Below the pieces are notes generated by a model. The model did not search any database. It was not told the DNA's origin and saw only the letters and a program-made list of their open reading frames with translations. Below are positions 5,416 to 43,918 of a stretch of 64,000 nucleotides of DNA, piece by piece (the first letter of the stretch is position 1; every line of letters begins with the position of its first letter). This stretch comes from a bacterium (GTDB taxonomy: Bacteria; Patescibacteriota; Saccharimonadia; Saccharimonadales; SZUA-47), in contig JAUIBF010000001.1 of the NCBI GenBank assembly GCA_030428125.1, positions 162,793 to 226,792 on the forward strand. Reading direction: 5' to 3'. Both the position numbers and the translations under genes were made by a program.

Positions 5416-6849
5416 ATGAAAACTACTCAAAAGGCACCTAATGTGCCGGTTACAGATTTTAAGCGTACTAAAATATTAGCAACTATCGGACCTGGTACTT
5501 CGAACTACGACATGGTTTATAAAATGATAGAGGCCGGCGCCAACGGTATTCGGCTTAATTGTAGTCATGGAGTTAACGAAGAACGTGTTGAGCAGATTGA
5601 ATGGGTTAGAAAAGCTTCAAACGAACAGGGAAAACCAGTTGCAATTCTACAAGATTTACAGGGTCCAAAGATTCGTCTGGGTGATTTCGAAGGAGTTATT
5701 CCCGTTCAGGCTGGGCAAAGTCTGCAACTTAAATATAAAGCAGACTATGAACGAAGTGGTCAGATTCCAATCCAGTATGATTTAAGTAAGAAGGTAAAGC
5801 GTGGTGAGCGATTATATATTTTTGACGGTAAGGTTAAAACGATAATAACTAGCGTCAAAGACGGCATCGTACACGTAAACGTAGAAAACGATGGTGTGCT
5901 ACTAAAACGAAAAGGCATAAATTTACCTGATACTGACTTTGCGGGTGATGTAATTACTAAAAAAGATGTAGAAGACGCTACGTGGGGTTCAGGTCAAGAT
6001 ATTGATTATGTAGCACAAAGTTTCGTGCAAACAGCAGACGATATCAAACAGTTGCATAAAATTTTAAAGAACCTAGGTTCAAATGCGAAAATTGTTGCCA
6101 AGATCGAGACTGTAGCAGCTCTAGAAAACATAGAATCGATAATAGATGTATCAGATGCAATTATGATAGCCAGAGGTGATTTGGCTGTTGAGACTGCGCC
6201 AGAAGTTGTGCCTGTAGAGCAAAGACGAATAGTCGGACTATGTCGTAAGTACAGCAAGCCAGTAATAGTTGCAACTCAGATGCTAGCAACGATGACTGAG
6301 TCAAGTGAGCCAACCAGGGCTGAAGTCTCAGATGTTGCAACTGCTGCAATTATCGGCACAGACTGTGTGATGCTTAGTGAAGAAACAGCGGTGGGTAAAT
6401 ATCCTGTCGAGGCCATTAAGATTATGAAACGAGTGGTTACTTACACAGAAAAGTATAGTCCAGTAGACGCTGTTTTTAGAATTGTTGACGAAGAAAATAC
6501 GCGACAATCCGCGATTGTAAGCGCAGCCGTTACTCTAACAGAAGAAGTTGATGCTACTGCAATTGTTGCAGAAACCAAGTCAGGTGCTACAGCAGTTCAG
6601 ATTTCAGCGCGTCGCCCAGATCATCCTATCATCGCAGTAACATCACTAGAACGGGTTTCGAATCAGCTAGCACTTGTTTATGGTGTAAAAAGTTTTGTAA
6701 GGCCAGATAGCAAATCAGCGGCTACCAAACTTACTAACTGGCTTGAGAAGAGCAAAACCTTAAAAAAGGGTGACGTCATCGTAACTGCATCAGGTCAGTA
6801 CCCAGGGGTTGTTGGTACTACAGACACTATTAAGGTCAGAGTATTGTAA
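5416..6849 (+). CDS. pyk: Pyruvate kinase.
   Basis: TKILATIGPGTSNYDMVYKMIEAGANGIRLNCSHG matches the classic PK N-terminus, with MLSEETAVGKYP near the C-terminus. Confidence 0.9.
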   Translation: MKTTQKAPNVPVTDFKRTKILATIGPGTSNYDMVYKMIEAGANGIRLNCSHGVNEERVEQIEWVRKASNEQGKPVAILQDLQGPKIRLGDFEGVIPVQAGQSLQLKYKADYERSGQIPIQYDLSKKVKRGERLYIFDGKVKTIITSVKDGIVHVNVENDGVLLKRKGINLPDTDFAGDVITKKDVEDATWGSGQDIDYVAQSFVQTADDIKQLHKILKNLGSNAKIVAKIETVAALENIESIIDVSDAIMIARGDLAVETAPEVVPVEQRRIVGLCRKYSKPVIVATQMLATMTESSEPTRAEVSDVATAAIIGTDCVMLSEETAVGKYPVEAIKIMKRVVTYTEKYSPVDAVFRIVDEENTRQSAIVSAAVTLTEEVDATAIVAETKSGATAVQISARRPDHPIIAVTSLERVSNQLALVYGVKSFVRPDSKSAATKLTNWLEKSKTLKKGDVIVTASGQYPGVVGTTDTIKVRVL

Positions 6850-18601: not shown

Positions 18602-18985
18602 TGGTGGAGCTGGTGGGAATTGCACCCACGTCCATCGGCTAACTCATTGGATGACTACAAGCTTATTTTGTTTAGTGTGTCTTAGGTCAAATAGCTCTAA
18701 ACAAACAAAATACTAAATGACGGCAACCTTAAAATCTTAATACAACCCTTAAGGTGGCGGGGAAGTAAGCATCAGATAATATAAGACCCTCTGACTTTTA
18801 TCTGAGTCAAAGAGAGGATCGCAGTCTAAATAATTAGGCTGCTAGTGCGAATTGACGTTGCGCTAAAACGCGGTCTGCCATTTCGCTCAAAGATGTTTTT
18901 GCATCTATTGTTTTGCCCTATAACGGTGAGCAACCGGCTTGCCATGCCAACTTGTCAAGGTCCAATGTCGAGCTATATCAGCCCC
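18602..18985 (-). ncRNA. ssrA: tmRNA (ssrA), about 384 nt. The inferred tag is (A)DRVLAQRQFALAA.
   Basis: The minus strand reads 5'-GGGGCTGATATAGCTCGAC...-3' and ends ...GGACGTGGGTGCAATTCCCACCAGCTCCACCA-3'. This matches the canonical tmRNA tRNA-like ends, with a G-U at acceptor pair 3. The internal frame GCA GAC CGC GTT TTA GCG CAA CGT CAA TTC GCA CTA GCA GCC TAA encodes ...FALAA followed by a stop. Confidence 0.85.
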
Positions 18986-25524: not shown

Positions 25525-25601
25525 GCGGGTGTAGCTCAGTTGTTTAGAGCGCATCCTTGCCAAGGATGAGGTCGAGAGTTAGAGTCTCTTCACCCGCACC
25601 A
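25525..25601 (+). tRNA. tRNA-Gly (anticodon GCC), CCA encoded. It is the integration target of the downstream island.
   Basis: GCGGGTG-TA-GCTC AGTTGTTTA GAGC-G-CATCC TTGCCAA GGATG-AGGTC-GAGAG TTAGAGT CTCTT-CACCCGC-A-CCA. Confidence 0.9.
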
Positions 25602-27238
25602 TCAACGAAATCATCGTCATTAACGAACCCATCCCAGGGTTCGTTTAGTTTATAAGTAACCTTTGACCCCTTATAAGTACCGTCTTGGACCGGCGTAATT
25701 GTGAAATTAGAGAAGAAAATTCTTAGCAATTCGTCCATTGCCTTCATGTCGCGAATTTTGCTAAGGATAACAGGGGTGAGTTTTAGAAGTTTGAGATAAT
25801 CTTCAAAAGTTGGGATTGCGTCATCAACCTGCTTTCTTAGCAGCTGAGCTTTTTTGTAATCCCTCTTAAGGTTAGTGATTTCTTTTTTGTTCTTGCCCAA
25901 ATCGTAGTGGTCTTTCATCTCAGGGCTTTCAAGTATTAGGTCTTTTATCTTCTGATACGAAGTCTCTTTATTCGCGAGAACTCGCTTAAGTCTTGCAATG
26001 TCACTGTCAAACTCAGCAGTCTTTCTTTTTGCCTCTTTCTTTGCGGATTTAAGGTAATACTGGTAGTTGCTCTTTGTTATGAAAAGATGCTGTCTGAAGA
26101 AGTGTTGAGCCTCGTCAATAACAAGACCAGCGCGAGCAGATTTATTCCGCATGACACAGTTTTCCGTTTCGCATTTGTAGTAATATCGCGCATGTAAAAC
26201 CTCGCCAGTTTCTTTGTCTCTCTTGGGTACTAGCATTGATGTAAGAGACTTTTTGCATTTACCGCAGTAGACCATGCCTCTCAGCAGGTCAGCTTGTATA
26301 TTGCCGCCCTTAGGTCTATTGATAGCAAGAATTTTTGCGTCTCTTAGGTCATCTATCTTATTAATCTGTAAAAATTCATCAACAGACACCACTGGTTCAA
26401 AGTTGTATGCATCAACTAGGTTAGTCAGATTTTTACCCCACTTATGAACTCCGGCATAATGTGGGTCGCGTAGCATCTTAGACACATCGTCTTTGTCCCA
26501 TACATGGCTCACATATTTGCCGCCAGGGAGCTTTTGGACCGTATATTCCTGCTTATTTATCCAAATGCGGATATCTTTCTGCGACTTGCCGCCAAGAGCC
26601 ATCTCAAACATGTGTTGTATCTTGGCAAAGTTAAGCGGATCAGGTCTAAAATAGCGTTTCTCGTCAACTACATAGCCGTGCTTAAACTTACCTATAAATT
26701 CAGCATCTTCAACAGCCCGTCTGTTGCCTCTATCTACCGACTCCGATAGGTGTTCTGAGTATTGTTTTGCCATGACAAAAGTAATGCCAAGTAGCATCTT
26801 GCCAGCAGGAGTGTTTTCAAAAGTGAAAGTTGCAAATCGCAAATCCTTTATAAGGCCTCTGTCTACTAGGTCTATAATTGCGCCAGCCTCTTTCATGTTG
26901 CGAGAGAGTCGGTCTGGATGCCATGCTATAACTCCCTCTATACGACCACTTTCAATTTCTTTTATTAGTGCATTAAACTCATCTCTAAGATCGGCTACTT
27001 TTGCCGAATAACTTTCTTGGTAAATCTTTACGACATTGAGGCTGTTTGGCGTGACAACCTTTTCCATGCACTCCTTCACCTGATCTTCTATAGATGAAGC
27101 CTGTCTATCCTCGCTAGTCGTAGACTTACGTGCATACAGAGCGTAGCGTATCAGCTCAGGATTAATCTCCCTAGGGTCTTTATCTTGTCCTGCCTGCAAC
27201 ATCTCCAGCAGTTGTTGGGTGCTTTTACTATCTGCCAT
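25544..27238 (-). CDS. Large serine recombinase (phage-type serine integrase). Its C-terminal 19 codons overlap the tRNA-Gly gene.
   Basis: Catalytic YALYARKSTTSEDRQASSIEDQ (Ser in RKST), DRLSRN, a recombinase domain, a zinc ribbon CGKCKK...YYYKCETENC and a coiled-coil tail. Confidence 0.85.
   Translation of the reverse strand: MADSKSTQQLLEMLQAGQDKDPREINPELIRYALYARKSTTSEDRQASSIEDQVKECMEKVVTPNSLNVVKIYQESYSAKVADLRDEFNALIKEIESGRIEGVIAWHPDRLSRNMKEAGAIIDLVDRGLIKDLRFATFTFENTPAGKMLLGITFVMAKQYSEHLSESVDRGNRRAVEDAEFIGKFKHGYVVDEKRYFRPDPLNFAKIQHMFEMALGGKSQKDIRIWINKQEYTVQKLPGGKYVSHVWDKDDVSKMLRDPHYAGVHKWGKNLTNLVDAYNFEPVVSVDEFLQINKIDDLRDAKILAINRPKGGNIQADLLRGMVYCGKCKKSLTSMLVPKRDKETGEVLHARYYYKCETENCVMRNKSARAGLVIDEAQHFFRQHLFITKSNYQYYLKSAKKEAKRKTAEFDSDIARLKRVLANKETSYQKIKDLILESPEMKDHYDLGKNKKEITNLKRDYKKAQLLRKQVDDAIPTFEDYLKLLKLTPVILSKIRDMKAMDELLRIFFSNFTITPVQDGTYKGSKVTYKLNEPWDGFVNDDDFVDGAGEETLTLDLILGKDAL
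25581..25599 (+). repeat. attL core, direct repeat copy 1 (inside tRNA-Gly).
   Basis: Identical to 32024-32042. Confidence 0.85.
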
Positions 27239-27638: not shown

Positions 27639-28046
27639 CTATAGTCGCTTGGGTATAGTTAATACTATGTTTACTTCACCATCTTCAATTTCATACTCAC
27701 CCCAACAACTTACTGTTTTACCTGAATTAACTAAAGCCGCAATCTGTGTGGCAGTCGGCTTTCCCTCGTAGGCTACATAGCCCAGCCAATTCTTGCTAGT
27801 TGTTTCCGTGCTTGGATAGTTGTTTACGTTATAAAACTCGCCATTAGGCCAACCCTTACTGATTTGGAAGTTATTTTTGGGACTAAGCGAAAAACGAATT
27901 GGAGTATTTAATTCCAAGGAAGCTGATTGATTTTTTCTCCATACCTCCCCCTGAACATGAACCCTTATCGGACCTTTTGGAACTTCTACGGTTTCTTCGG
28001 CGGGTGCATCATCCTTACCGATTAATTTTTTTAGTTTAGATAACAT
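27639..28046 (-). CDS. Hypothetical protein, 136 aa from an internal ATG with RBS GAAGGGGAAAT. The ORF track extends to 28157.
   Basis: The ORF and RBS match the pattern used elsewhere in the window. No motif. Confidence 0.45.
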   Translation of the reverse strand: MLSKLKKLIGKDDAPAEETVEVPKGPIRVHVQGEVWRKNQSASLELNTPIRFSLSPKNNFQISKGWPNGEFYNVNNYPSTETTSKNWLGYVAYEGKPTATQIAALVNSGKTVSCWGEYEIEDGEVNIVLTIPKRL

Positions 28047-28376
28047 ACATTTCCCCTTCATTGGTTGATGAAGCGGGTCAATAAAAAAAAGGACAACCCG
28101 CAGGTTGTCTAAAACCAGTACCAGCTTACGCCGAATACTTTTACGCGAGTTGCCCATTTTTTGGCATAAACACGCAAAATGCGATATTTGATACTGGTTT
28201 TAGACTATTTCATTATACCAATCATCTTAGTTTTCAGTAGTTTTTGCTATTTGGTCAATAGACCCCCAAAAATTCGCCATTGCTATTTTTGCTCAGAAAA
28301 ACGCTTGTCAAAATCGGCCCCGAAAATTCGGCATTTATACAGCGGAGTCCCGGCAACAGGGGTGGAGGGCAACTTC

Positions 28377-28462: not shown

Positions 28463-28648
28463 ATGTCAGACATTGAAAAAGAAGTATTGCATAAATTTAA
28501 AACCGAACTTTCGGGGATTGATAAGATTTCCCAGCAATTGTCTGATGCGCTTTGCGTAGAACTTGAAAAAGACTCACCCAGCGTAGAGACGTTGATGAGC
28601 ATAATTCAGCTGAAAAAGGGGTTTATTTCCGATGATAAAGCTGGGTGA
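28463..28648 (+). CDS. Small 61-aa protein, translationally coupled (17-nt overlap) to the downstream ATPase gene.
   Basis: The ORF end overlaps the ATG of the 817-aa gene. Confidence 0.4.
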   Translation: MSDIEKEVLHKFKTELSGIDKISQQLSDALCVELEKDSPSVETLMSIIQLKKGFISDDKAG

Positions 28649-31085
28649 ATTACACATTGAAGAATTTAGAGGTATCCGCCAATTAGATATTGATTTTAAG
28701 TATCAATCTTTTGCTGTTCATGGACCAAATGGTTCTGGTAAAAGCGGAGTGGTTGATGCAATTGGCTTTGCACTTAGTGGAACTATAGCGAGGCTAACTG
28801 GTGCTGGTACACGGTCAGTTTCGGTGAAGGCTCACGCTCCACACGTAATGAGCAAGGACGATCCTAGCTCGTCCCGGGTTTCACTTACGTTTAAAGATTT
28901 AGTTAGTGGACAGATTGGAACTATCACTCGGACGGTTCAAGACCCACAAGACTTTACACTTTCACCAGACACACCTGAGCTTAGAGCTGCGCTTGAAAGT
29001 GCACTTAAGCACCCAGAAATTACTCTATCTAGGAGAGAGATCATAAAGTTCATACTTGCAGAAGCAGGTAAAAGATCAGAGGAAGTGCAAGTGCTCCTGC
29101 AGCTAGATAAAATTGATGCAAATCGTAAGGTTCTGAAATCAACACAAAATAAAGTTGACTCAGACAAACGTAATGCCGCTCAACAAGCCACACAGGCGAA
29201 ACAAGCAATGGAATTACATCTTGGTATCAGCGATTTGGATGCAGAAAAAGTTAAGGACAAAATAAACCCGCATAGGAAAACCCTCGGTTTAACTGAATTT
29301 AAGAAAGTTGATCTTTCTACTAACTTGCGTGAAGGTTTGGATGAAAAAGACGAAGAGAAACCATTTGACAAAGAGACTGCCAAAAGAGAGGTCAAGGCAT
29401 ACGAAGACGCTATAAGCTCTTCGCCGACAATTCTTACGGAGACAGTAGTTGAATTAATCAAAGCCCTGAAAGAGCTGGACGATGACGCAAACCTAGAACA
29501 GCTTAAGAACAGGAGTTTTTTGGAGTCTGGACTTGAACTGGTTGCAGAAGAGGGGGTATGTCCACTTTGCGATAAAACTTGGCAAACGCCAGACGAACTC
29601 AGAGAGCACCTGAAGCATAAAATAGAAAGCTCAAAGGAAATAGCGAAAATCAGTGAGAATATCGTTCTAAAGGCAAATGACGTAAAGGATGCTATAGGAG
29701 ATGAGCGTGCACTATTGTCTCAGGTTCAGAAACTCTCTGTGAACTGGTCTGATGTTGACGATCAAAACTTATTTCAGTCAAGAATGGACTTGCTACTTGA
29801 GTTTGGTACATTGCTAAAAGATGCTAAAGGATGTGTTGACACACAAGACCGGCTGGAAGCCGGTGACTTAGATGCCAAGAGTGAGCTGCTTGAAGCAATA
29901 GGTAGACTTAAAGATAAGATTGATAAGCAGGCTGACACTTCCGAAAAATCAAAATCTCGTAGTCATCTCATACTGGCAGCTGAGAGATGGACCGCATTTG
30001 CTAATGCTAAAGTAAGCGAACAGCGTGCACTGAACTCATCAGAAAGAGCTGAGTTGGTTTACAAATCATACTGCAAGGTAGCTGATGCAGAACTAGAGGA
30101 GCTTTATGAAAGTGTTGAAGCAAGATTTAGTAAATTCTACGGTCAAATTAATAGTGATGACGAAGAGGGTTTCAAGGCCGAATTCAAACCTACGGCAGGA
30201 AAATTAGACCTTTTTGTTGATTTTTACGGCATAGGAATGTTTCCGCCCGGTGCATACCACAGTGAAGGTCATCAGGATGGTATGGGCATTTGCCTATACT
30301 TAGCCCTAGTAGAAAAAATACTGGGCAAAAATTTTAGCTTGTCTGTACTAGACGATGTAGTAATGTCTGTGGATGTAAATCACCGGAGACAGTTTTGCGA
30401 GCTACTACAAAAAGAATTTCCAGATACCCAATTTATTATTACTACCCACGATGAAATATGGGCAAAGCAAATGAAAACCACTGGGCTAATAGCTAGTAAA
30501 TCTGATATTCGCTTTAGGGGCTGGAGCGTAGATCATGGGCCTATATATGAACAAGGGGAAGAATTCTGGGACAGAATAGATGAAGACCTAAAGAAGGGTG
30601 ATGTTCCAAGCGCCTCTCATAAACTTCGTAGAGGTCTTGAGGCAGAGTTACCCGACATTGCTGAGGCAATGGCCGCAAAGGTAAAGTATCGTGGAGATGC
30701 AAAATACGAGCTTGGCGAGCTTACGGACGCCATAAAGTCTAGGCACGCTGGCTTATTAAAGTTGGCTAAAGAGTCAGCTAGTTCGTGGAACAAAAAGGAT
30801 GACCTTGAAAAAATAAAACAAATTGATAAGACACGAATTGAAGCAGCGCTTTCTCAGCAACGCGAGAACTGGGCAGTAAATTTACAGGTTCATTTCAACG
30901 ATTGGGCAGACATGTCTGTTAATGATTTTAAGCCTGTTGTGGAAGCGTGGCACACATTCTTAGACCTTTATAGATGCGGCAACGATGCTTGCGAGTCGTG
31001 GATAGGGGTAACTTACAACTCCGGTGCGCAAGAGAGTTTGCGTTGTCGCTGCGGCGAATACAATCTTAATTTATTGAAAAAGTAG
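28632..31085 (+). CDS. Rad50/SMC-like ABC ATPase with a coiled-coil CxxC zinc hook and a ~230-aa C-terminal domain. Candidate RloC-like anticodon nuclease / defence ATPase.
   Basis: Walker A GPNGSGKSGVVDAIGF. Long charged coiled coil with CPLCDKTW in the middle. Walker B/D-loop LSVLDDVVMSVD and H-loop FIITTHD. C-terminal RRGLEAE...(+35)...SRHAG, i.e. R-x3-E then His, as in the PrrC triad. Terminal Cys cluster CGNDACESW...CRCGEY. Confidence 0.7.
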   Translation: MIKLGELHIEEFRGIRQLDIDFKYQSFAVHGPNGSGKSGVVDAIGFALSGTIARLTGAGTRSVSVKAHAPHVMSKDDPSSSRVSLTFKDLVSGQIGTITRTVQDPQDFTLSPDTPELRAALESALKHPEITLSRREIIKFILAEAGKRSEEVQVLLQLDKIDANRKVLKSTQNKVDSDKRNAAQQATQAKQAMELHLGISDLDAEKVKDKINPHRKTLGLTEFKKVDLSTNLREGLDEKDEEKPFDKETAKREVKAYEDAISSSPTILTETVVELIKALKELDDDANLEQLKNRSFLESGLELVAEEGVCPLCDKTWQTPDELREHLKHKIESSKEIAKISENIVLKANDVKDAIGDERALLSQVQKLSVNWSDVDDQNLFQSRMDLLLEFGTLLKDAKGCVDTQDRLEAGDLDAKSELLEAIGRLKDKIDKQADTSEKSKSRSHLILAAERWTAFANAKVSEQRALNSSERAELVYKSYCKVADAELEELYESVEARFSKFYGQINSDDEEGFKAEFKPTAGKLDLFVDFYGIGMFPPGAYHSEGHQDGMGICLYLALVEKILGKNFSLSVLDDVVMSVDVNHRRQFCELLQKEFPDTQFIITTHDEIWAKQMKTTGLIASKSDIRFRGWSVDHGPIYEQGEEFWDRIDEDLKKGDVPSASHKLRRGLEAELPDIAEAMAAKVKYRGDAKYELGELTDAIKSRHAGLLKLAKESASSWNKKDDLEKIKQIDKTRIEAALSQQRENWAVNLQVHFNDWADMSVNDFKPVVEAWHTFLDLYRCGNDACESWIGVTYNSGAQESLRCRCGEYNLNLLKK

Positions 31086-31097
31086 AATAATACTTTT

Positions 31098-31715
31098 TCA
31101 ATAAGGTATCTGTTTGTTCAAAAGGATAATTTCTTTTAGCTTTTCTTCATCCGTTAAGTTGCGTATATGGTCACTTACAAAAGACGCAAGTTTTAACAGT
31201 AGCTCATCGCGAAGCATTTGGTGGTGGAAGTATATTATTTGCAGATCTTCTCCCTCAATACTAAGAGGTGGAGCAATCGCAACCGCCCTGTGCTTGTGGT
31301 GTTCGTCCCATTCCTCTACCACCTGGTTTGACCATTTGTTAACATCAAAACTAACGTTGGTTTCCAGACCTTTGTACTTATAGTATGAATAGAAACTATT
31401 TGATTGCCCTACATGCGCAAAGGGATGTCTGCCTGATTTCCAAAAAAGTTTGCACAATTCCTTATCCCAGCCCCAAGCATCATGTAATACATTCGCAATA
31501 GTTTGAACATTTGGAAAAGTCTTGCCGCTATAAAAAGTTACAAGCCATTCAATATATGAAAATGTGCTAGACCATAATGAAGATGCTTTAAGTGAGTAGA
31601 AACTATCTATGCCGTTGCTGTGAATGTCATCTGAGATTGTTTTTAGGTAGTTAATCCAGTTTGATGCTTTGTTATCAATGGCGTTCGCTTGGCTGTTATT
31701 TACACTTGGTATCAT
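31098..31715 (-). CDS. Hypothetical Trp/Tyr-rich protein, convergent with the ATPase gene.
   Basis: ORF only. Confidence 0.45.
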   Translation of the reverse strand: MIPSVNNSQANAIDNKASNWINYLKTISDDIHSNGIDSFYSLKASSLWSSTFSYIEWLVTFYSGKTFPNVQTIANVLHDAWGWDKELCKLFWKSGRHPFAHVGQSNSFYSYYKYKGLETNVSFDVNKWSNQVVEEWDEHHKHRAVAIAPPLSIEGEDLQIIYFHHQMLRDELLLKLASFVSDHIRNLTDEEKLKEIILLNKQIPY

Positions 31716-32023: not shown

Positions 32024-32042
32024 AGAGTCTCTTCACCCGCAC
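32024..32042 (+). repeat. attR core, direct repeat copy 2 (partial tRNA-Gly 3' end).
   Basis: Identical to 25581-25599. Confidence 0.85.
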
Positions 32043-32134
32043 TATTCCATCAACCTAGCAGTACGCAAGGTATTTATGAATAGTAATTTTGAAGAGGTTG
32101 TGCTTTGTTTCAATGCTGAGTATATTACTAATAA

Positions 32135-36003: not shown

Positions 36004-36145
36004 GTCAATTTGTATTGCCGCCAGGTTTCTTCAAAAAGGCCATTCAATCTATACCACATTAGCTATATTGTAAAATTTACCAAAATGTTTGGAAATACAT
36101 AGCTGTACTGCCATAGTAAGAAGCAACAAACTATCAGGAGGTGAC

Positions 36146-39100
36146 GTGCTTAGATTGCTCAATGTATTTACAAATGGTGGGGTTAAAAAAATAGCGTTCG
36201 TTGCTATTTTATTGGTAACTTTATCCGTCCCGGCGTTAATATTCGGGCAGGGTTCGTTTTTGAACACACCACATCTATCGTTTGATGGCTCTAACGATAA
36301 AGTAGACCTGCAGAATCTAGATATAAGTGGTAGTGCATTGACATTGGAAGTTAATTTTAACTCCAGTGACTTAGATAACTGTGGTAGCTATTTAGATTGT
36401 AGAATAATCTCTAAGTCCGTCGGTACAGCGGACCAAGATCATTATTGGATGCTTTCAACAATAAAAAATAGTAGCAACCAAGCCGTACTTAGATTTCGTC
36501 TAAAAACTGGCAGTAGCACATCAACTCTTATTGCAAGTTCGGCCGTAGTTAACGAGAACGAATGGAATCATGTAGCTGCTACCTATGATGGTTCTATGAT
36601 GAGATTATATTTGAACGGTAACGAGGTTGGATCTGCGCCGAAATCCGGTAACTTAGCTACGAACTCTAGCGTAAATGCCTACATCGGTAACAACCCGGTT
36701 ACTTCTAAGCCGTTCGAAGGGTTAATTGATGATGTCAGAATCTGGAACATCGCTAGGACACAATCCGAAATTAGTGATAGCAGAGAAGCAGAACTTACTG
36801 GTTCTGAATCTGGTTTGGTGGGTTACTGGCGATTTAACGAAGGCGAAGGACAGTTTGCTCACGACTCATCTGGTAATTTAAACGATGGAATCCTTGGGGA
36901 TGCCGTATCTGTTGATAGTGCTGACCCAGTTTGGTTAAATCTTGCAGCTGACGTAGAACCACCTACACAAGTCACCAACGTAACAGCGGATGTCATATCC
37001 TCTAACCAGGTTAACCTAGACTGGGATGTTAGCAGTGACGATAGAGCAGTTACTCAATATGTTGTAGAGCGTAATCAAGTAGAAATCGCAGCTGTTTCGA
37101 GCAATGATTTTGTAGATACTGGCCTTAGCGAATTAACAACTTACGAATATGTTATTTATGCTGAAGACGAAGCTGGAAATCGCTCAGTTGGTTCAGAAGC
37201 GATCAGTGTTCAAACTCCTGTAGCCCCTGACACAGAGGCGCCCACAGTTCCACAGAATCTACAAGCTGTCGAGGTAAACGAAAGTCAAGTTGACCTAGCT
37301 TGGGAAGAGAGCACCGATAACGTAAGTGTAACCCACTACAACGTTCTAAGAGATGGTGCATTACTAGAAACAATTGTTGCTGCAAACACTTATACTGACT
37401 TAACCGTTACACCAGGTGTAACCTACACGTATGCTGTAAATGCAGTAGATGCAGCAGGTAATACATCGGCCGATAGTAATACAGTTCAGACTTTGATCCC
37501 AACTCCTCCCGATAACGATCCACCAACGACGCCACAAAATCTTCAAATCGTATCATCCACCGACGAAGAGGTTAACCTGGACTGGGACGATAGCACCGAC
37601 AACGTTGTGGTTCTTAGGTATTTGGTCGTACGCGACGGTGTTCAGATAGCAGAAGCGCCTAATTCAAGCTTCACGGACACCGAATTTACTATTGGTGTCG
37701 AACACACTTACGAAGTCTACGCCGAGGACGCATCCAGCAACATTTCTGCTGTGTCAAATCAAGTTTCAGTAACCGTCTTAGACACTACAAATCCTGAACT
37801 TGAGATAGTTAACCCTACGTCAGGACAGTACCTAACAGGAACAATCGCTTTGCACGCAGACGCAACTGATAACGTAGCTGTAGACTACGTCAGGATTTCT
37901 ATAGACGATGTAGAAGTTCATACGGCTTTTGATGCTCCATTTACTTTTGATTGGGACTCGACAACTGTGCCTGATGGCGAACATACAATCAGCTTTGAAG
38001 CATTTGATACCAGTGGAAATAGCAATCTAGCCAGTAGTACACACACAGTTATAAATGACTTTAGTGCAGTGCCACTACCTGGTGGTCAACACGTTGTATT
38101 TGATGGAAATAATGATCGAATTAACTTAGGTGCGCTTGAAGTTGGTTCAAACAGCCTGACTCTAGAAGCTTGGTTTAGAAGCGACGATTTAGGAAATTGT
38201 AGTTCAAATGATTGCCGAATTCTAACAAAGGCTAGTGGAGTAAATACCAACGATCACACCTGGATGCTTAGCACGATAAAGAGTGGCTCCTCAACAAATA
38301 TGAGGTTCAGATTAAAAACAAATGGTTCTACAGAAACGTTGATTTCTAACCAAAATGTCCCTGAGTCAGAATGGGTTCATGTGGCGGCTACTTATGACGG
38401 CAGCCAAATGCGAATTTACCAGAATGGCCAACTAGTCGGCCAACAAAATGAAACTGGTTCAATTACTTCAGAACCAAGCAAGCAGGCTTGGATTGGTTCC
38501 TCGCCAAACAGTGGGCTAAGACCTTGGCTAGGCGAGGTAGACGACGTGCGAATTTGGAATGTAGCGCGGAGCCAGCAGGAAATCGCAGATAACATGAACT
38601 ACGAACTGACAGGCGTAGAAGACGGATTGTTTGCTTACTATAAACTTAACGAAGGTGGTGGCCAGCTAGCCTACGATGCTACAGGCAACCAATCAAACGG
38701 AATTATTGGTTCTACCGATCAAGTTGATGACAACGACCCAGCTTGGGGATTAGAAGCTCCAGATACCGAAGCACCTTCGTCACCAGGCAACCTGCAGTCC
38801 GGATCAGTAACCGACAACTCGTTCACATTAGATTGGCAAGCCAGTACAGATAACGTTGCGGTAACTGCTTACGAAGTTGTCATAGACGGCGTTGTTCGGG
38901 AAGTTATCGGTACCCAAACAAGCTACCTAGTTGATAGCTTGCAACCATCCACGGAATATATAGCTCTCGTACGAGCTTACGATGCTGCTGGTAACCTGTC
39001 TAGCGACTCCAATCAAGTGATAGTTACGACAACAACTCCAGACACAACTGCACCTGTAGTCTCGATTGATTCGCCACTAGACAGTGCAGAATTAACGGGG

Positions 39101-42100
39101 ATTGTTGATGTCACACTCACTGCAAGCGACGATCAATCACTAGATTACGTGGAAGTAATTTTAGATGGCTCGGTGTTAGAAACACTAACTAGCGGACCAT
39201 TTATATATTCTTGGAATACAGCAACGGTTAGCAATGGGCTTCATGATCTTTCAGCTCGAGCAGTAGATAGCTCTGGCAATGAAACATCGACCAGCACAAT
39301 AGTTGTGGATGTTCAAAATACGACGCCTCCGGTGAACGCGCTTCCTGGTTCACAGCATCTCGTGTTTGACGGCTCTAACGACCGAGTTGATCTAGGCAAT
39401 ATAGATATTCCAGGCAATCAGATGACTCTAGAGGCTTGGGTGAATAGTTCAGATTTATCTAACTGCGCAGCCAGGGATTGCCGAATCATCGCAAAGGCAA
39501 CTGGCGTAAACGATCAGGATCATTATTGGATGGTTAGTACGATCCAGGATGGTGGTAATACAGCCTTAAGATTTAGATTAAAAACCAATGGCAACACCTC
39601 TACACTAGTAAGTTCAAGCAATGTCCCCGAAAATTCTTGGGTTCACATAGCTGCGACTTACGATGGCTCAGCTATGCGTCTATATCAAGACGGAAACTTA
39701 GTGGGAACAACCTCAAAATCTGGTTCAATTACTACTGCTTCAACCGTACCAGCCTGGTTAGGTGATTCACCTGTTGGAAACCGACCATGGCAAGGTGCGA
39801 TTGATGATGTTCGTATATGGACGGTCGCAAGATCACAAGCTGAAATCAGTCAGGCTATGAACCAGGAACTTACCGGTTTAGAAGACAATCTGTTTGCTTA
39901 CTATAAACTCAACGAAGGTGGTGGCCAAACAGCAGTAGATAGTGGTTCAAATGGACTCGATGGTGTACTCGGTTCTTCGACTAACAGTGATAGTGCCGAC
40001 CCAACTTACGGAATAGAAACACCAGACGTTCAATCTCCAACCACACCACAAAACGTCGTGGTAGCAAACGCGTATTCAACCCAAATTGACCTAACCTGGG
40101 ACGAAAGCTTCGATGATCGTATCGTAGCGGGCTATATTGTTCTGAGGGACGGAGTAGAAGTTGGCAATGTAGACACGAACTCATTCACCGATATTTCGGT
40201 CAGCCCGCAGACCTCGTACAGTTACCAAATAGTAGCTTACGACGGTGCCGATAATCAGTCGGATGCTTCCAGTGCCACCAACGCTGCAACTAGTGAAGTA
40301 ATGCCAATTACTTTCAGTGGCGTTCAGGTAGATAGTGTTTCTACTGACAAAGCTACAATTTCTTGGCAAACTAACGATACGGCGTCAGGAAAGATCGAGT
40401 ACGGCATTACTACAAGCTACGGATCAGAAACTTCCGAATCTGCTAACTTGCAGGCTTCGCACACCCAGGAACTGACTGACCTAGCAGCGGACACTGTCTA
40501 TCACTTCAGGATTGTTTCTACTAACTCATCGGGCACATACACCTCAGAAGATTACACGTTTACGACTTCTGGTAATATCGTAATCGGCGGAGAATTCGGA
40601 TTCGAATACGAAACAATTAGCGACGTTAGTGGTACTGGTGGCCGAACAGCTATATCGGACATCGATGGCGATGGTTACAACGATGTCGTAGTGCACACCT
40701 GGGCAACTAACCGTGGAAACGACGATAATGGAACCCTTATTTGGTATAAATACCCAGACTGGACTCCTACAACTGTTCTGGACAATACAAATTTCTTCGG
40801 TGATGGAATAATTGCAGCCGATCTAGATGCCGATGGTGATATGGACATAATTACCTGTAAGGGTAGCGATTCCGACCCTAGTATTTACTGGTACGAAAAC
40901 CCCGGCGATGGCAGCGGTAATTGGAACGAATCTTTTGTGTTAAAAATGGAAACGGGCTCAGAAGTAAAAGATATCGAAGTCCACGACATGGATCATGACG
41001 GCAAACTGGACATAGTTGGTCGGTCTAAGCATAGAACAACAATCATGTACCAAGACAATCCTCAGTCTTGGGATGTGCGGGAAACTATTACCCAAGAACG
41101 CGAAGGTATGATGCTTGGTGATGTTGACCACGACGGGGACGAAGACATAATCATCAACGGTTGGTGGTTAGAAAACCCAGGTGTTAGAGCAACGGATCAG
41201 CTAGAAATCCACGACTTTGATTCTACCTGGAACGGGCAATCTGGTGGTAGTTTCAGGGACAACGCCGTAATGATTTCTACCGGTGACTACGATGGCGATG
41301 GCGACGAAGATTTTGCTGTTAGCCATGCCGAACATCCAGGATATACAGCAGCTTGGTACGAAGCTGTAGACCCTAAAGCTGGCGAATCAGGGTTCATCAA
41401 GCACCCAATCGCTACCGTAGATTATGGCCACAACAATGCATCAGCCGACTTTGACTTAGATGGTGACGTTGATATCTTGATCGGTACAACCACTTGGGCC
41501 GGAAGTAGCAATAAAATCTCGGTGTTCCTAAACGACGGCACTGGTGAAAACTGGACAGAACATGTAATGTGGAACACTGCAGGATATAAAGGAGTTATCG
41601 GCGACATCGATAATGACGGCGACATGGACTTTACAAGTTCCAGAAACTGGGAAACCCATCCTGTGTATGTACTTCGAAACACATCGGACCCTGTTTTTAG
41701 GCCAACCGACCCAGCTCTAGACATGTGGGAGCGACACGAAGTTGACCAAATGGCATGGCGCGGAGTTTTCGTAGAGCACGCTGACCTAGACGGAGACGGC
41801 GACGAAGATGTTGCATCTGCTGGCTGGTGGTACGAAAACCCAGGTGAATTATCAGGTCAGTGGATCGAACACACCATCGGTTCACCACTAAATAACTTAG
41901 GCGCAATTTACGACTTTGATGGCGATGGCGACATGGATATCCTAGGAACAGAGGGCCAAGGTTCGACATCTAACCGTAACCTTGTTTGGGCCGAAAACGA
42001 TGGCAGCGGTAACTTTACAGTCAGGACAAACATTAACACTGGCGGAAGTGGAGACTTCTTGCAAGGTGTGGCTGTCGATAGATTTACCGATGCCGGTCCT

Positions 42101-43918
42101 CTGCAAGTTGCCATGTCCTGGCACAACGGTGGCGGTGGAGTTCAAATGCTTACCGTACCGTCTAATCCAAGTACTGAGCAATGGACCTGGCAGCAAATTT
42201 CATCGACTACTCAGGGCGAGCAGTTAACAGCTGGCGACATCGATCAAGATGGCGACCGCGACTTGTTGCTGGGAACAATCTGGCTGGAAAACAATTCCGG
42301 TGTCTGGACACCACACGTAATGTACGAACCAAGTGGCATAGATAACACACCAGACAGAAGTCGCCTAGCAGACATGAACGGCGACGGCAGGCTAGATGCC
42401 GTTGTGGGCTTCGAAGCCATAAGTATCCCTGGCCGCTTGGCATGGTACGAACAACCCGCCGACCCAACCGGAACATGGACAGAGCACATAATTGACGAAA
42501 CAATCATCGGCCCAATGAGTCTGGATGTATTAGATATGGACTACGACGGCGATATCGAAGTGGTCGCTGGCGAACATAACCTAGCCAACACTTCTGCCGC
42601 AAGGCTGTTCGTTTACGAAAATATCAACGGTGACTCTACTGAGTGGACTCAGCATGTTGTATATACTGGTGACGAACACCACGACGGCGCACAAATAGCC
42701 GACCTAGATAATGATGGCGATTACGACATTGTATCGATTGGTTGGGGTGCAAGGCGTGTTACGGTTTACGAAAACACTACCCCCGTAGCAGGAGCTTGGT
42801 GGAGTGACGCCCACAGCTTCCGTTTGCCACTAACATTTTCACCAGATGACCAACAGCGACAAGATTACGTTGTCGAGACGAACCTTAACTTTACCGACCA
42901 ATTTAATCAGGCGAACTCTCCTGGCGCATTAATAGAAGATTCTATAAGGGTTGTAGAAACAGACGAAAACGGCTTTGTAATTAACAGCTCAGTGGCGCAT
43001 CAGTTCATCCCAAGCAGCGATTATGATGCTTCAACTAACGCAGCTGGAACATTAGCGCTTCTGCTGCCTGGTGTAACCAGTGCCGATGAATCCAGATACT
43101 TTGATGTTTACTTCGATCACAGTGGAGCTTTCCCAGCTATAAACTTCACAGATTTGGTTTCAGTAACCGACGATGTTCAGGACGAAGGTCAAGCAAGTTT
43201 CGAGGTAGTTACACCAAATGCAACTTGGTTGTACCAAAAAGATGCCGGTGGATTCTCTAGCATCATTGATTCTGACGGTAACGACTGGATAGGCTACAGC
43301 ACGGCAACTGGGTCTGCCGGAGAATTCAGGGGTATCCCTAACCTGGTTTACCCAGAAGGTCAGTTCCATCCAGGTGCAACCGGTTCAACTTCAACCCTGG
43401 TTACAGATGGCCCGCTTAAGACAACCATCCATACCACCACAAATGACGATGCTTGGGAAGCTTACTGGCACATTTACCCAACACATGCACAGCTCCAGGT
43501 TGTAAAAACAAATCACAGCTATTGGTTCTTGTACGAAGGTACACCTGGCGGCCAGCTAGATTACACTAACGATTCCGTAACACTATCAAATGGCCAAGTT
43601 TACGGAGCCGATCAAACCTTCCACTTTGATTTCGATGGCGAAGAATGGGCGTACGTTAGCGATGCAGCCGTCAACCGATCTATATTCCTAGTACATCACG
43701 AAGACGATAACGAGATTGATGGATACCGGCCAATGAACAATCAAATGACTGTTTTTGGATTTGGACGCGGCGCCGGAACTGCAACCTACATGGATAATAC
43801 TCCCCAACACTTTAGTGTAGGGCTAATGGACTTAGTCGATTACCAAAACGGAAGCGAAGTTGTTCGGGGTTCCTTCTATCAATATTCAATTACGAATAGT
43901 CCAGTAGAATCAAGGTAG
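36146..43918 (+). CDS. Giant (about 2590-2609 aa) secreted multidomain surface protein. It has 3 LamG/ConA-like modules, FN3 and Ig-like domains, about 13 FG-GAP/VCBS repeats (two beta-propellers) and a C-terminal domain. GTG start with an AGGAGG RBS; the alternative ATG is at 36089.
   Basis: Three paralogous modules each contain LTLEAW..DCRI..HYWM.STI..RFRLKT..W.H.AATYDG..R.Y.NG...DDVRIW..AR.Q.EI. FN3-like ..VNLDWD.S.D...V..Y.V.R.. segments. Repeats of D.D.DGD.D at 40660-42730. Confidence 0.85.
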   Translation: MLRLLNVFTNGGVKKIAFVAILLVTLSVPALIFGQGSFLNTPHLSFDGSNDKVDLQNLDISGSALTLEVNFNSSDLDNCGSYLDCRIISKSVGTADQDHYWMLSTIKNSSNQAVLRFRLKTGSSTSTLIASSAVVNENEWNHVAATYDGSMMRLYLNGNEVGSAPKSGNLATNSSVNAYIGNNPVTSKPFEGLIDDVRIWNIARTQSEISDSREAELTGSESGLVGYWRFNEGEGQFAHDSSGNLNDGILGDAVSVDSADPVWLNLAADVEPPTQVTNVTADVISSNQVNLDWDVSSDDRAVTQYVVERNQVEIAAVSSNDFVDTGLSELTTYEYVIYAEDEAGNRSVGSEAISVQTPVAPDTEAPTVPQNLQAVEVNESQVDLAWEESTDNVSVTHYNVLRDGALLETIVAANTYTDLTVTPGVTYTYAVNAVDAAGNTSADSNTVQTLIPTPPDNDPPTTPQNLQIVSSTDEEVNLDWDDSTDNVVVLRYLVVRDGVQIAEAPNSSFTDTEFTIGVEHTYEVYAEDASSNISAVSNQVSVTVLDTTNPELEIVNPTSGQYLTGTIALHADATDNVAVDYVRISIDDVEVHTAFDAPFTFDWDSTTVPDGEHTISFEAFDTSGNSNLASSTHTVINDFSAVPLPGGQHVVFDGNNDRINLGALEVGSNSLTLEAWFRSDDLGNCSSNDCRILTKASGVNTNDHTWMLSTIKSGSSTNMRFRLKTNGSTETLISNQNVPESEWVHVAATYDGSQMRIYQNGQLVGQQNETGSITSEPSKQAWIGSSPNSGLRPWLGEVDDVRIWNVARSQQEIADNMNYELTGVEDGLFAYYKLNEGGGQLAYDATGNQSNGIIGSTDQVDDNDPAWGLEAPDTEAPSSPGNLQSGSVTDNSFTLDWQASTDNVAVTAYEVVIDGVVREVIGTQTSYLVDSLQPSTEYIALVRAYDAAGNLSSDSNQVIVTTTTPDTTAPVVSIDSPLDSAELTGIVDVTLTASDDQSLDYVEVILDGSVLETLTSGPFIYSWNTATVSNGLHDLSARAVDSSGNETSTSTIVVDVQNTTPPVNALPGSQHLVFDGSNDRVDLGNIDIPGNQMTLEAWVNSSDLSNCAARDCRIIAKATGVNDQDHYWMVSTIQDGGNTALRFRLKTNGNTSTLVSSSNVPENSWVHIAATYDGSAMRLYQDGNLVGTTSKSGSITTASTVPAWLGDSPVGNRPWQGAIDDVRIWTVARSQAEISQAMNQELTGLEDNLFAYYKLNEGGGQTAVDSGSNGLDGVLGSSTNSDSADPTYGIETPDVQSPTTPQNVVVANAYSTQIDLTWDESFDDRIVAGYIVLRDGVEVGNVDTNSFTDISVSPQTSYSYQIVAYDGADNQSDASSATNAATSEVMPITFSGVQVDSVSTDKATISWQTNDTASGKIEYGITTSYGSETSESANLQASHTQELTDLAADTVYHFRIVSTNSSGTYTSEDYTFTTSGNIVIGGEFGFEYETISDVSGTGGRTAISDIDGDGYNDVVVHTWATNRGNDDNGTLIWYKYPDWTPTTVLDNTNFFGDGIIAADLDADGDMDIITCKGSDSDPSIYWYENPGDGSGNWNESFVLKMETGSEVKDIEVHDMDHDGKLDIVGRSKHRTTIMYQDNPQSWDVRETITQEREGMMLGDVDHDGDEDIIINGWWLENPGVRATDQLEIHDFDSTWNGQSGGSFRDNAVMISTGDYDGDGDEDFAVSHAEHPGYTAAWYEAVDPKAGESGFIKHPIATVDYGHNNASADFDLDGDVDILIGTTTWAGSSNKISVFLNDGTGENWTEHVMWNTAGYKGVIGDIDNDGDMDFTSSRNWETHPVYVLRNTSDPVFRPTDPALDMWERHEVDQMAWRGVFVEHADLDGDGDEDVASAGWWYENPGELSGQWIEHTIGSPLNNLGAIYDFDGDGDMDILGTEGQGSTSNRNLVWAENDGSGNFTVRTNINTGGSGDFLQGVAVDRFTDAGPLQVAMSWHNGGGGVQMLTVPSNPSTEQWTWQQISSTTQGEQLTAGDIDQDGDRDLLLGTIWLENNSGVWTPHVMYEPSGIDNTPDRSRLADMNGDGRLDAVVGFEAISIPGRLAWYEQPADPTGTWTEHIIDETIIGPMSLDVLDMDYDGDIEVVAGEHNLANTSAARLFVYENINGDSTEWTQHVVYTGDEHHDGAQIADLDNDGDYDIVSIGWGARRVTVYENTTPVAGAWWSDAHSFRLPLTFSPDDQQRQDYVVETNLNFTDQFNQANSPGALIEDSIRVVETDENGFVINSSVAHQFIPSSDYDASTNAAGTLALLLPGVTSADESRYFDVYFDHSGAFPAINFTDLVSVTDDVQDEGQASFEVVTPNATWLYQKDAGGFSSIIDSDGNDWIGYSTATGSAGEFRGIPNLVYPEGQFHPGATGSTSTLVTDGPLKTTIHTTTNDDAWEAYWHIYPTHAQLQVVKTNHSYWFLYEGTPGGQLDYTNDSVTLSNGQVYGADQTFHFDFDGEEWAYVSDAAVNRSIFLVHHEDDNEIDGYRPMNNQMTVFGFGRGAGTATYMDNTPQHFSVGLMDLVDYQNGSEVVRGSFYQYSITNSPVESR

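Follow-up and report, generated by a model that had tools for sequence, protein, structure and literature searches.

Here, we examine a two-gene cassette that lies in a 64,000-nucleotide (nt) stretch of a Saccharimonadia genome (assembly GCA_030428125.1, contig JAUIBF010000001.1, positions 162,793 to 226,792 of the forward strand), which we will call the window and to which coordinates refer unless another sequence is named. The first gene encodes an acidic protein of 61 amino acids (aa), and its stop end overlaps by 17 nt the start of the second open reading frame (ORF), whose 817-aa product combines an ATP-binding cassette (ABC) ATPase, a zinc hook, and a fused C-terminal domain (Table 1). 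The two genes are carried by an integrative element inserted at a tRNA-Gly gene.

A preliminary description, made from the letters and the translated ORFs, had proposed that this is a defence module of the RloC type, that is, a Rad50-like ATPase that ends in an anticodon nuclease. On translation, the ORFs and every motif that it listed were found where it had placed them. Its estimate of about 230 aa for the C-terminal domain was too large; the domain takes up some 180-200 aa (aa ~620/640-817). Residue conservation, both in the table and in the text, was counted over 222 full-length members of the family, down to 29% identity.

Table 1. Features of the cassette, of the island that carries it, and of two truncated relatives on other replicons
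Feature	Position	Strand	Residues	Evidence or remarks
Small partner gene, 61-aa acidic protein	28463..28648	+		Translation
817-aa Rad50/LmuB-like zinc-hook ABC ATPase with fused C-terminal domain	28632..31085	+		Translation, Pfam, PADLOC, AlphaFold2, Foldseek
Walker A, GPNGSGKSG	28722..28748	+	31-39	K37 and S38 in 222/222 members
Zinc hook, CPLC, at the coiled-coil apex	29559..29570	+	310-313	C310, P311, and C313 each in 221/222
ABC signature variant, SEGHQ	30261..30275	+	544-548	Invariant in at least 221/222
Walker B, LSVLDD, Asp replacing the usual catalytic Glu	30339..30356	+	570-575	D574 and D575 in 222/222
H-loop, ITTHD	30438..30452	+	603-607	H606 in 222/222
Family-specific C-terminal domain, putative effector	30549..31082	+	~640-817	Helical bundle, then four-Cys beta ribbon
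R666-x3-E670 in RRGLEAE	30627..30641	+	666-672 (RRGLEAE)	First long helix of the C-terminal domain
R704-H705 in SRHAG	30741..30746	+	704-705	Triad His of the preliminary description; not conserved as a catalytic residue
Loop E745-x-W747-xx-N750-xxx-H754-x-N756-x-W758	30864..30905	+	745-758	Candidate catalytic His; directly before the last helix
Four-Cys cluster CGNDAC...CRC (C782, C787, C805, C807)	30975..31052	+	782-807	Terminal zinc ribbon
tRNA-Gly(GCC), integration site of the island	25525..25601	+		ARAGORN; 3' end duplicated at 32024-32045
Left direct repeat (attL core), AGAGTCTCTTCACCCGCACCAT	25581..25602	.		22-nt 3' end of tRNA-Gly
Right direct repeat (attR core)	32024..32045	.		21/22 bases identical to the left copy
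Large serine recombinase, island integrase	25544..27238	-		Pfam and PHROG; not part of the cassette
172-aa ORF on the island	27639..28157	-		Free of any family-library match
205-aa ORF, tail-to-tail with the ATPase	31098..31715	-		Rare family, 8 clusters
Truncated variant, Natrinema salinisoli plasmid	L097, 3822-5959			Coupled 58-aa ORF and ATPase without C-terminal domain
Truncated variant, Halomontanus rarus plasmid	L102, 4822-6968			Coupled 58-aa ORF and ATPase without C-terminal domain

The zinc-hook ATPase and its small partner

The large protein is an ABC ATPase of the Rad50/LmuB type with an invariant CPxC hook in its coiled coil, and here the preliminary description, which had called it Rad50-like and its CxxC a zinc hook, was right on both counts. 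Pfam places it in SMC_N (2.5e-19) and AAA_23 (3.5e-14). The best match in PADLOC, a distant one, is to the LmuB model PDLC03859 (1.5e-22, 78.5 bits), with aa 2-615 of the protein aligned to positions 3-593 of a profile of 611. An AlphaFold2 (AF2) model, built with 83 homologues and having a predicted local distance difference test (pLDDT) score of 84.4, consists of a split ABC head, a segmented helical arm (aa ~159-506) that turns at CPLC, and, past the head, a C-terminal helical domain followed by a beta ribbon. When this model was compared with known structures using Foldseek, Rad50 came out on top (E 5e-14), in the company of SMC, cohesin, and condensin, the LmuB of Salmonella Lamassu, and JetC. 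The hook, the signature SEGHQ, the VLDD of Walker B, and H606 are essentially invariant across the members.

Searches returned 734 homologues, and all 120 of those listed measure 813-822 aa. Because full-length homologues at 29-71% identity occur in hundreds of genomes, a chance ORF is excluded for the 817-aa gene. In homologues, the hook region gives weak matches to the Rad50_zn_hook, AAA_13, and LmuB profiles, and by itself it scores the PADLOC LmuB model at 2e-5 to 1.5e-8. Five homologues (P0027, P0028, P0042, P0043, and P0114) have, at aa ~250-395, sub-threshold matches both to AAA_13 and to PDC-S06, a candidate single-gene system in PADLOC whose models are 727-858 positions long. The AAA_13 and PDC-S06 matches in the hook region hint that the hook-bearing defence ATPases may be distant relatives of one another.

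The 61-aa ORF had been described as a coupled partner, and comparison of loci bears this out. In 71 of the 74 parsed loci, the ATPase is preceded by an ORF of ~58 aa that runs up to or into its start, and in 55 of these 71 the overlap is the 4-nt ATGA or GTGA. Of the three loci without an intact pair, one is cut off by the contig edge, one is frameshifted, and one has an ATPase that is disrupted at its N-terminus. In the Micropruina sp. chromosome (locus L041, ~5650-6000), the small gene appears frameshifted, its N-terminal half lying in one frame and its C-terminal half in another, as would result from an assembly error or from a decaying copy. The small proteins make up a conserved acidic family (~58 aa, median isoelectric point, pI, 4.8); the 61-aa protein itself has no match in Pfam, PADLOC, NCBIfam, or PHROGs. 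Even relatives at 22-24% identity (Halobacterium, Fibrella, Aliiroseovarius) keep the small ORF. Clustering of the flanking ORFs within +/-6 kb of the cassette in 75 loci revealed no third conserved gene, the largest cluster being present at 8 loci; since the small ORF is near-constant and no third gene is conserved, the functional unit is exactly two genes.

The small ORF is also kept beside truncated ATPases. Two haloarchaeal plasmids carry variants in which it is coupled to an ATPase without the C-terminal domain (Table 1), and no shared trans effector is evident beside the two: their downstream genes differ, with a PLD-like protein in Natrinema only. Given that the microprotein is retained where that domain is absent, it is most likely a subunit on the ATPase core and not merely an antitoxin of the C-terminal domain.

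Relatives of the ATPase were found in at least 452 of 185,579 species genomes (one genome per species), that is, in ~0.24%, and are scattered over at least nine phyla, namely Patescibacteria, Actinomycetota, Chloroflexota, Bacillota, Acidobacteriota, Gemmatimonadota, Pseudomonadota, Spirochaetia, and Verrucomicrobiota. The closest homologues carry the labels Candidatus Saccharimonadales and Doudnabacteria, copies from the candidate phyla radiation (CPR) and from Actinomycetota are 45-53% identical, and tblastn located the family on 28 plasmids, haloarchaeal ones included. Such a sporadic spread across phyla, taken with the identity between CPR and Actinomycetota copies and with the plasmids, points to horizontal transfer. 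One should not expect to recognize the family by its database names, which are either the generic "AAA family ATPase" or an automated tag, "double-strand break repair".

Every distinct locus inspected has mobile or defence genes around the cassette. These include a type IIG restriction-modification (R-M) gene at one locus; an integrase with AbiEi/AbiEii and SMODS at another; Mrr-nSTAND3; integrative and conjugative element (ICE) genes with an integrase and DUF4365; integrases and transposases; type I hsdR/S/M genes; a HigBA-like pair with an integrase and an excisionase; and, further, a DUF499/Hma gene, a patatin with ThiF, and Tn7-like tniQ/tniB. On plasmid pHTIA of Halorhabdus tiamatea (L098, 3805-6469), the cassette lies between pglX and pglZ of an annotated bacteriophage exclusion (BREX-5) operon. 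The preliminary description had regarded the island as a typical setting for defence genes and had allowed that homologues confined to housekeeping SbcC/RecN contexts would speak against it; the tRNA-flanked element and the neighbours of the homologous loci agree with the former, and the latter was not observed at any distinct locus. This context, together with the patchy spread across phyla and domains, strongly favours a defence role over housekeeping repair, and we regard a defence function of the family as very likely.

The C-terminal domain and its candidate active site

The C-terminal domain is found in this architecture only. A phmmer search of the whole library with the domain alone gave 663 clusters at 50% identity, essentially all of them with the domain at the C-terminus of proteins of ~815 aa, and a profile search of a set of 5.8 billion proteins gave fragments of the same family only. 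The domain has no Pfam, PADLOC, or PDB sequence-profile match; when 39 members were also scanned singly against Pfam, the only recurrent signal was a weak match of the Cys cluster to the zinc-binding IBR family, seen in 22 of the 39. Similarity to anticodon nuclease folds, which the preliminary description would have predicted, did not appear in profiles, and a Foldseek comparison of the domain with the PDB produced nothing significant (best E 0.37). In its AF2 model (pLDDT 80.9), long helices at 658-679, 694-718, 722-744, and 763-778 precede a three-stranded ribbon, the strands of which fall at 792-813.

Conservation singles out a small set of polar residues. R666, N750, and H754 are present in all 222 members and E670 in 221; around them are E745 (214/222), W747 (218/222), N756 (204/222), and W758 (216/222), and each of C782, C787, C805, and C807 is found in at least 221 members. 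Four divergent full-length relatives (22-32% identity) all retain E670, H754, and the Cys cluster, and three of the four retain R666. In the AF2 model, R-x3-E is on the first long helix and the N-x3-H-x-N loop is at the junction before the last helix.

The Arg-x3-Glu...His triad of the preliminary description therefore has to be taken apart: its R-x3-E is invariant, but its His is not. Position 705 is His in 114 of the 222 members and otherwise mostly Tyr (65), with Leu in 15, Phe in 11, and Gln in 6, and the preceding R704 is present in 171. We rejected H705 as the catalytic His on this conservation; the invariant His is H754. The former lies 35 residues past E670 (X34) and the latter 84 residues past it (X83). 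Judged by conservation, R666, E670, and H754 would form an Arg-Glu-His set that recalls the PrrC/RloC triad, with a different spacing.

Canonical HEPN RNases carry the His of an Rx4-6H motif at the start of helix 4. In the present family, N750-x3-H754-x-N756 stands in place of that motif, and the invariant E670 belongs to R-x3-E, which reverses the HEPN-typical order Ex3[KR]. The same R-x3-E order is seen in PrrC and RloC (PMC2610378). The survey of the HEPN superfamily (PMC3710099) characterizes these domains by Rx4-6H and an upstream acidic residue, gives no helix positions, and documents non-canonical families. Because Foldseek finds nothing significant in the PDB, the modelled resemblance to a HEPN-like fold is only suggestive. 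As to function, we lean slightly towards a catalytic nuclease, and we are less confident that RNA would be its target.

The integrative island and its other genes

The mobile island is real. Its direct repeats bracket a 6.4-kb element consisting of a serine recombinase gene, the 172-aa ORF, the two-gene cassette, and the 205-aa ORF. The recombinase matches Pfam Resolvase (7.7e-21), Recombinase (6e-12), and Zn_ribbon_recom, and PHROG 95, integrase (7.6e-58). The integrase at this tRNA-Gly gene is thus a large serine recombinase of the phage type and not a tyrosine integrase, and its final codons extend into the tRNA gene.

The ORF upstream of the cassette, given as 136 aa in the preliminary description, is indeed there; it is 172 aa long when read from its first ATG and 135 aa when read from an internal ATG at 28046. 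Neither it nor the 205-aa ORF has a match in Pfam, PADLOC, NCBIfam, or PHROGs, or a homologue in the flanks of the 74 other loci; members of the 205-aa family do occur elsewhere, apart from the cassette. On these grounds, both ORFs were rejected as components of the system. The 205-aa family has an invariant FWKSGR[HN]PxxHVGQ, which has the form of a canonical HEPN-type Rx4H with a polar residue after the Arg. As its family also occurs apart from the cassette, the 205-aa ORF is probably an independent HEPN toxin or abortive infection (Abi) gene that shares the island; an hhalign comparison with the C-terminal domain of the ATPase found no relationship (probability 0.1%).

A scan for promoters and terminators gave nothing above background. 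Elsewhere in the window, there are a transfer-messenger RNA (tmRNA) gene at 18602-18985 on the reverse strand, with the tag AKTSLSEMADRVLAQRQFALAA, and a giant ORF of 2609 aa at 36089-43918 on the forward strand.

Interpretation and comparison with known systems

Two precedents underlie the model that we propose. In RloC, the DNA-dependent ATPase activates the nuclease, which mutations in the hook deregulate (PMC3458546), and in Lamassu, LmuB and LmuC sense DNA ends, whereupon the effector is released (10.1101/2025.03.14.643221; PMC12663957). By analogy, two copies of the ATPase would be joined through their zinc hooks into a dimer that surveys DNA, as do Rad50, LmuB, and RloC. The trigger would be an aberrant or foreign DNA structure (e.g., DNA ends or replication intermediates) combined with ATP-driven engagement of the heads, and the two together would shift how the C-terminal domains are placed relative to each other. 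As a rule, HEPN RNases are active only when two copies are juxtaposed in a dimer, and the site switched on in this way may be a HEPN-like, metal-independent RNase with H754, R666, and E670 as its candidate residues. Cleavage of RNA, whether tRNA or other, would halt translation, and the invader could not propagate. The microprotein would be a regulatory subunit, stoichiometric with the ATPase core, that either holds the switch off or helps to set its trigger. The RNase chemistry in this scheme is what we infer.

The cassette is probably a new RloC-like or Lamassu-like variant, in which a DNA-sensing, SMC-like switch controls a non-canonical putative RNase under the gating of a microprotein. 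We see about an even chance that the 61-aa and 817-aa genes are a self-contained mobile module that defends against phages or plasmids by abortive infection through the proposed switch. The full proposal is more tentative, and we hold it at somewhat less than even: an undescribed two-gene immune system, either a Lamassu with its effector in cis or an independent analogue of RloC, with a HEPN-like RNase (R-x3-E...N-x3-H) and a zinc ribbon, a 58-aa gate that binds the core, a range from CPR to haloarchaea, and recruitment to BREX and R-M loci.

Several observations weigh against the model of abortive infection through such a switch. Sequence profiles connect the C-terminal domain with neither PrrC nor RloC nor any HEPN family; no conserved Arg is found 4-6 residues before any conserved His, so that there is no canonical Rx4-6H; and the N750-W758 loop, which holds the candidate His, is predicted with the lowest confidence in both models (pLDDT 57-74). 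The truncated haloarchaeal ATPases, at 654-657 aa, stop exactly where the C-terminal domain would start, and the domain accordingly looks like a separable module and the core like one that can exist without the putative effector. A search of a phage collection gave no homologue, a result that fits a host defence gene yet is uninformative. Full-text literature searches turned up no experiment on any family member and no description of the family, though an earlier mention in surveys of ABC ATPases or HEPN domains (Krishnan et al. 2020, Anantharaman 2013) is possible.

The truncated variants, which keep the small ORF and an ATPase without the C-terminal domain, would suit a Lamassu-type sensor that has no nuclease of its own. 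Its C-terminal domain would bind DNA, RNA, or protein, or would oligomerise; its small protein would be LmuC-like; and it would act through a variable effector in trans or through DNA binding alone. PADLOC matches LmuB best, whether the whole protein or the hook region alone is searched, an hhhhDD Walker B such as the one found here has been reported for long LmuB proteins (PMC12663957), LmuC is likewise a small protein and is bound near the hook (10.1101/2025.03.14.643221), and HEPN folds without Rx4-6H are often non-catalytic binders (PMC3710099). However, neither an LmuA-like nor any other third gene is conserved beside the cassette, the acidity of the small protein (pI ~4.8) sets it apart from LmuC, which binds DNA, no LmuC model matches it, and a set of R, E, N, and H that is invariant over 222 sequences, to 29% identity, resembles an active site more than a binding surface. 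We consider such a sensor unlikely. The active site might instead belong to a DNase or another non-HEPN enzyme, with H754, E670, N750, and the zinc ribbon cutting invader DNA in the manner of Wadjet or SbcCD. SMC-like defence commonly ends in DNA cleavage, as in JetD of Wadjet, Cap4 of Lamassu, and MksG (PMC10586767); nucleic acid is a common ligand of zinc ribbons; several copies are on plasmids and ICEs; and the HEPN fold is unconfirmed by Foldseek. We take a DNA-cutting enzyme to be a distinctly unlikely identity for the domain.

The reading closest to the preliminary description is that of a divergent, true RloC orthologue, an anticodon nuclease that uses R666, E670, and H705 to cut or excise the tRNA anticodon loop. 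The protein does have the parts of the RloC ATPase, that is, Walker A, signature, Walker B/D-loop, and switch His, and a coiled-coil insert with a central CxxC. The RloC triad is Arg-X3-Glu-X36-52-His, with a Ser often preceding the His (PMC2610378), whereas H705 is at X34, follows an Arg, and is a His in 114 of the 222 members only, and the invariant H754 is at X83. Profiles that had been suggested as a check gave a divided answer: SMC_N and AAA_23 matched the ATPase, and nothing of the nuclease was matched. Pfam AAA_13 (PF13166) has no match in the 817-aa protein at E<=1; in some homologues it reaches 24-28 bits, below its cut-off of 36 bits, in the hook region and never over the C-terminal domain. 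The PADLOC PrrC model aligns with the signature/Walker B region only (E=0.0056) and misses the C-terminal domain even at E<=10. As RloC is, moreover, a single-gene system and the microprotein here is an obligate partner, we judge orthology with RloC to be highly improbable. A housekeeping ATPase for DNA repair or chromosome maintenance, of the SbcC, RecN, or RecF type, that reached the island by chance is scarcely credible. It would agree with the automated RefSeq Gene Ontology (GO) term "double-strand break repair" on plasmid-borne homologues and with weak NCBIfam matches to RecF, RecN, and Rad50, but those matches are N-terminal, cover the Walker A region only, and fall far below their cut-offs. 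No SbcD/Mre11 partner is conserved, the family is confined to ~0.24% of species genomes in a patchwork that crosses phyla and domains, and all inspected copies are in a mobile or defence context, one of them within a BREX operon.

Should the proposed RNase switch prove correct, a compact, single-polypeptide sensor-effector would join the SMC-based immune systems (Wadjet, Lamassu, and RloC). A covalent sensor-effector with a 58-aa partner would then be a minimal system in which to study how a Rad50-like hook and head signal to a nuclease, the same question that in Lamassu needed cryogenic electron microscopy of a multi-subunit complex. The combination of N-x3-H with R-x3-E would add a catalytic variant to those known for the HEPN-like fold, and hundreds of proteins now named "AAA family ATPase" or "double-strand break repair" would gain a function. 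The host, a member of the Saccharimonadia (CPR), appears to have a very small genome, in which an island of 6.4 kb is largely given to the cassette, and the finding would therefore bear on defence in episymbionts.

Among known systems, RloC (Davidov & Kaufmann 2008, Klaiman et al. 2012) is similar in length (~800 aa), in its ABC head, and in its coiled coil with a CxxC hook. Both proteins have a helical C-terminal domain in which an Arg-x3-Glu is invariant and a His looks essential, both are horizontally mobile and sometimes R-M-linked (here, the type I hsdRSM locus), and both likely employ a DNA-responsive ATPase switch to govern a fused nuclease. They differ in the distance from the Glu to the invariant His (84 residues, compared with 36-52 in RloC), in the terminal four-Cys ribbon and the obligate upstream microprotein of the cassette, where RloC acts as a single gene, and in the head and hook sequences, which are nearer to LmuB than to AAA_13; the distinction is drawn from profiles and published motif spacing. 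The order of an ABC ATPase and then a C-terminal domain, HEPN-type in those fusions and putatively so here, is shared with the PrrC, APECO1_4465, and ERFG_01251 families (Anantharaman et al. 2013), as are contexts that are mobile, R-M-linked, or Pgl/BREX-linked. Those fusions keep a recognizable Rx4-6H, in contrast to the orphan domain with N-x3-H described here, and PrrC has neither coiled coil nor hook. Fusions of ABC and HEPN domains have arisen several times, giving PrrC, RloC, APECO1_4465, and ERFG_01251 (PMC3710099), and the cassette ATPase appears to be one more such fusion or else a strongly diverged branch.

With Lamassu, the cassette has in common the zinc hook, the short segmented coiled coil, and the hhhhDD Walker B of long LmuB proteins, LmuB being its best though distant profile match at 78 bits. 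In both, an accessory gene for a small protein accompanies the ATPase gene, and the surroundings are those of a defence island. Unlike Lamassu, it has its putative effector fused in cis to the C-terminus of the ATPase and no separate LmuA gene, and no adjacent LmuA-like gene is conserved within +/-6 kb in the 75 loci; the preliminary description had remarked on a Lamassu-like logic without LmuA, and this remark holds. LmuC binds DNA, whereas the accessory protein of the cassette is ~58 aa long, acidic, encoded upstream, and without a match to the LmuC model in PADLOC, but the two may be functionally analogous. Rad50/SbcC shares the fold of head, coiled coil, and hook; it differs in having Mre11/SbcD as a partner, for which no counterpart is conserved here, whereas the cassette ATPase has a much shorter coiled coil, an extra C-terminal domain, and a sporadic, mobile distribution. 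Since there is no LmuA gene, no RloC triad spacing, and no profile membership, the cassette is a formal member of neither Lamassu nor RloC: its sensor part appears, from profile matches, to be nearest to LmuB in sequence, and its architecture mirrors that of RloC.

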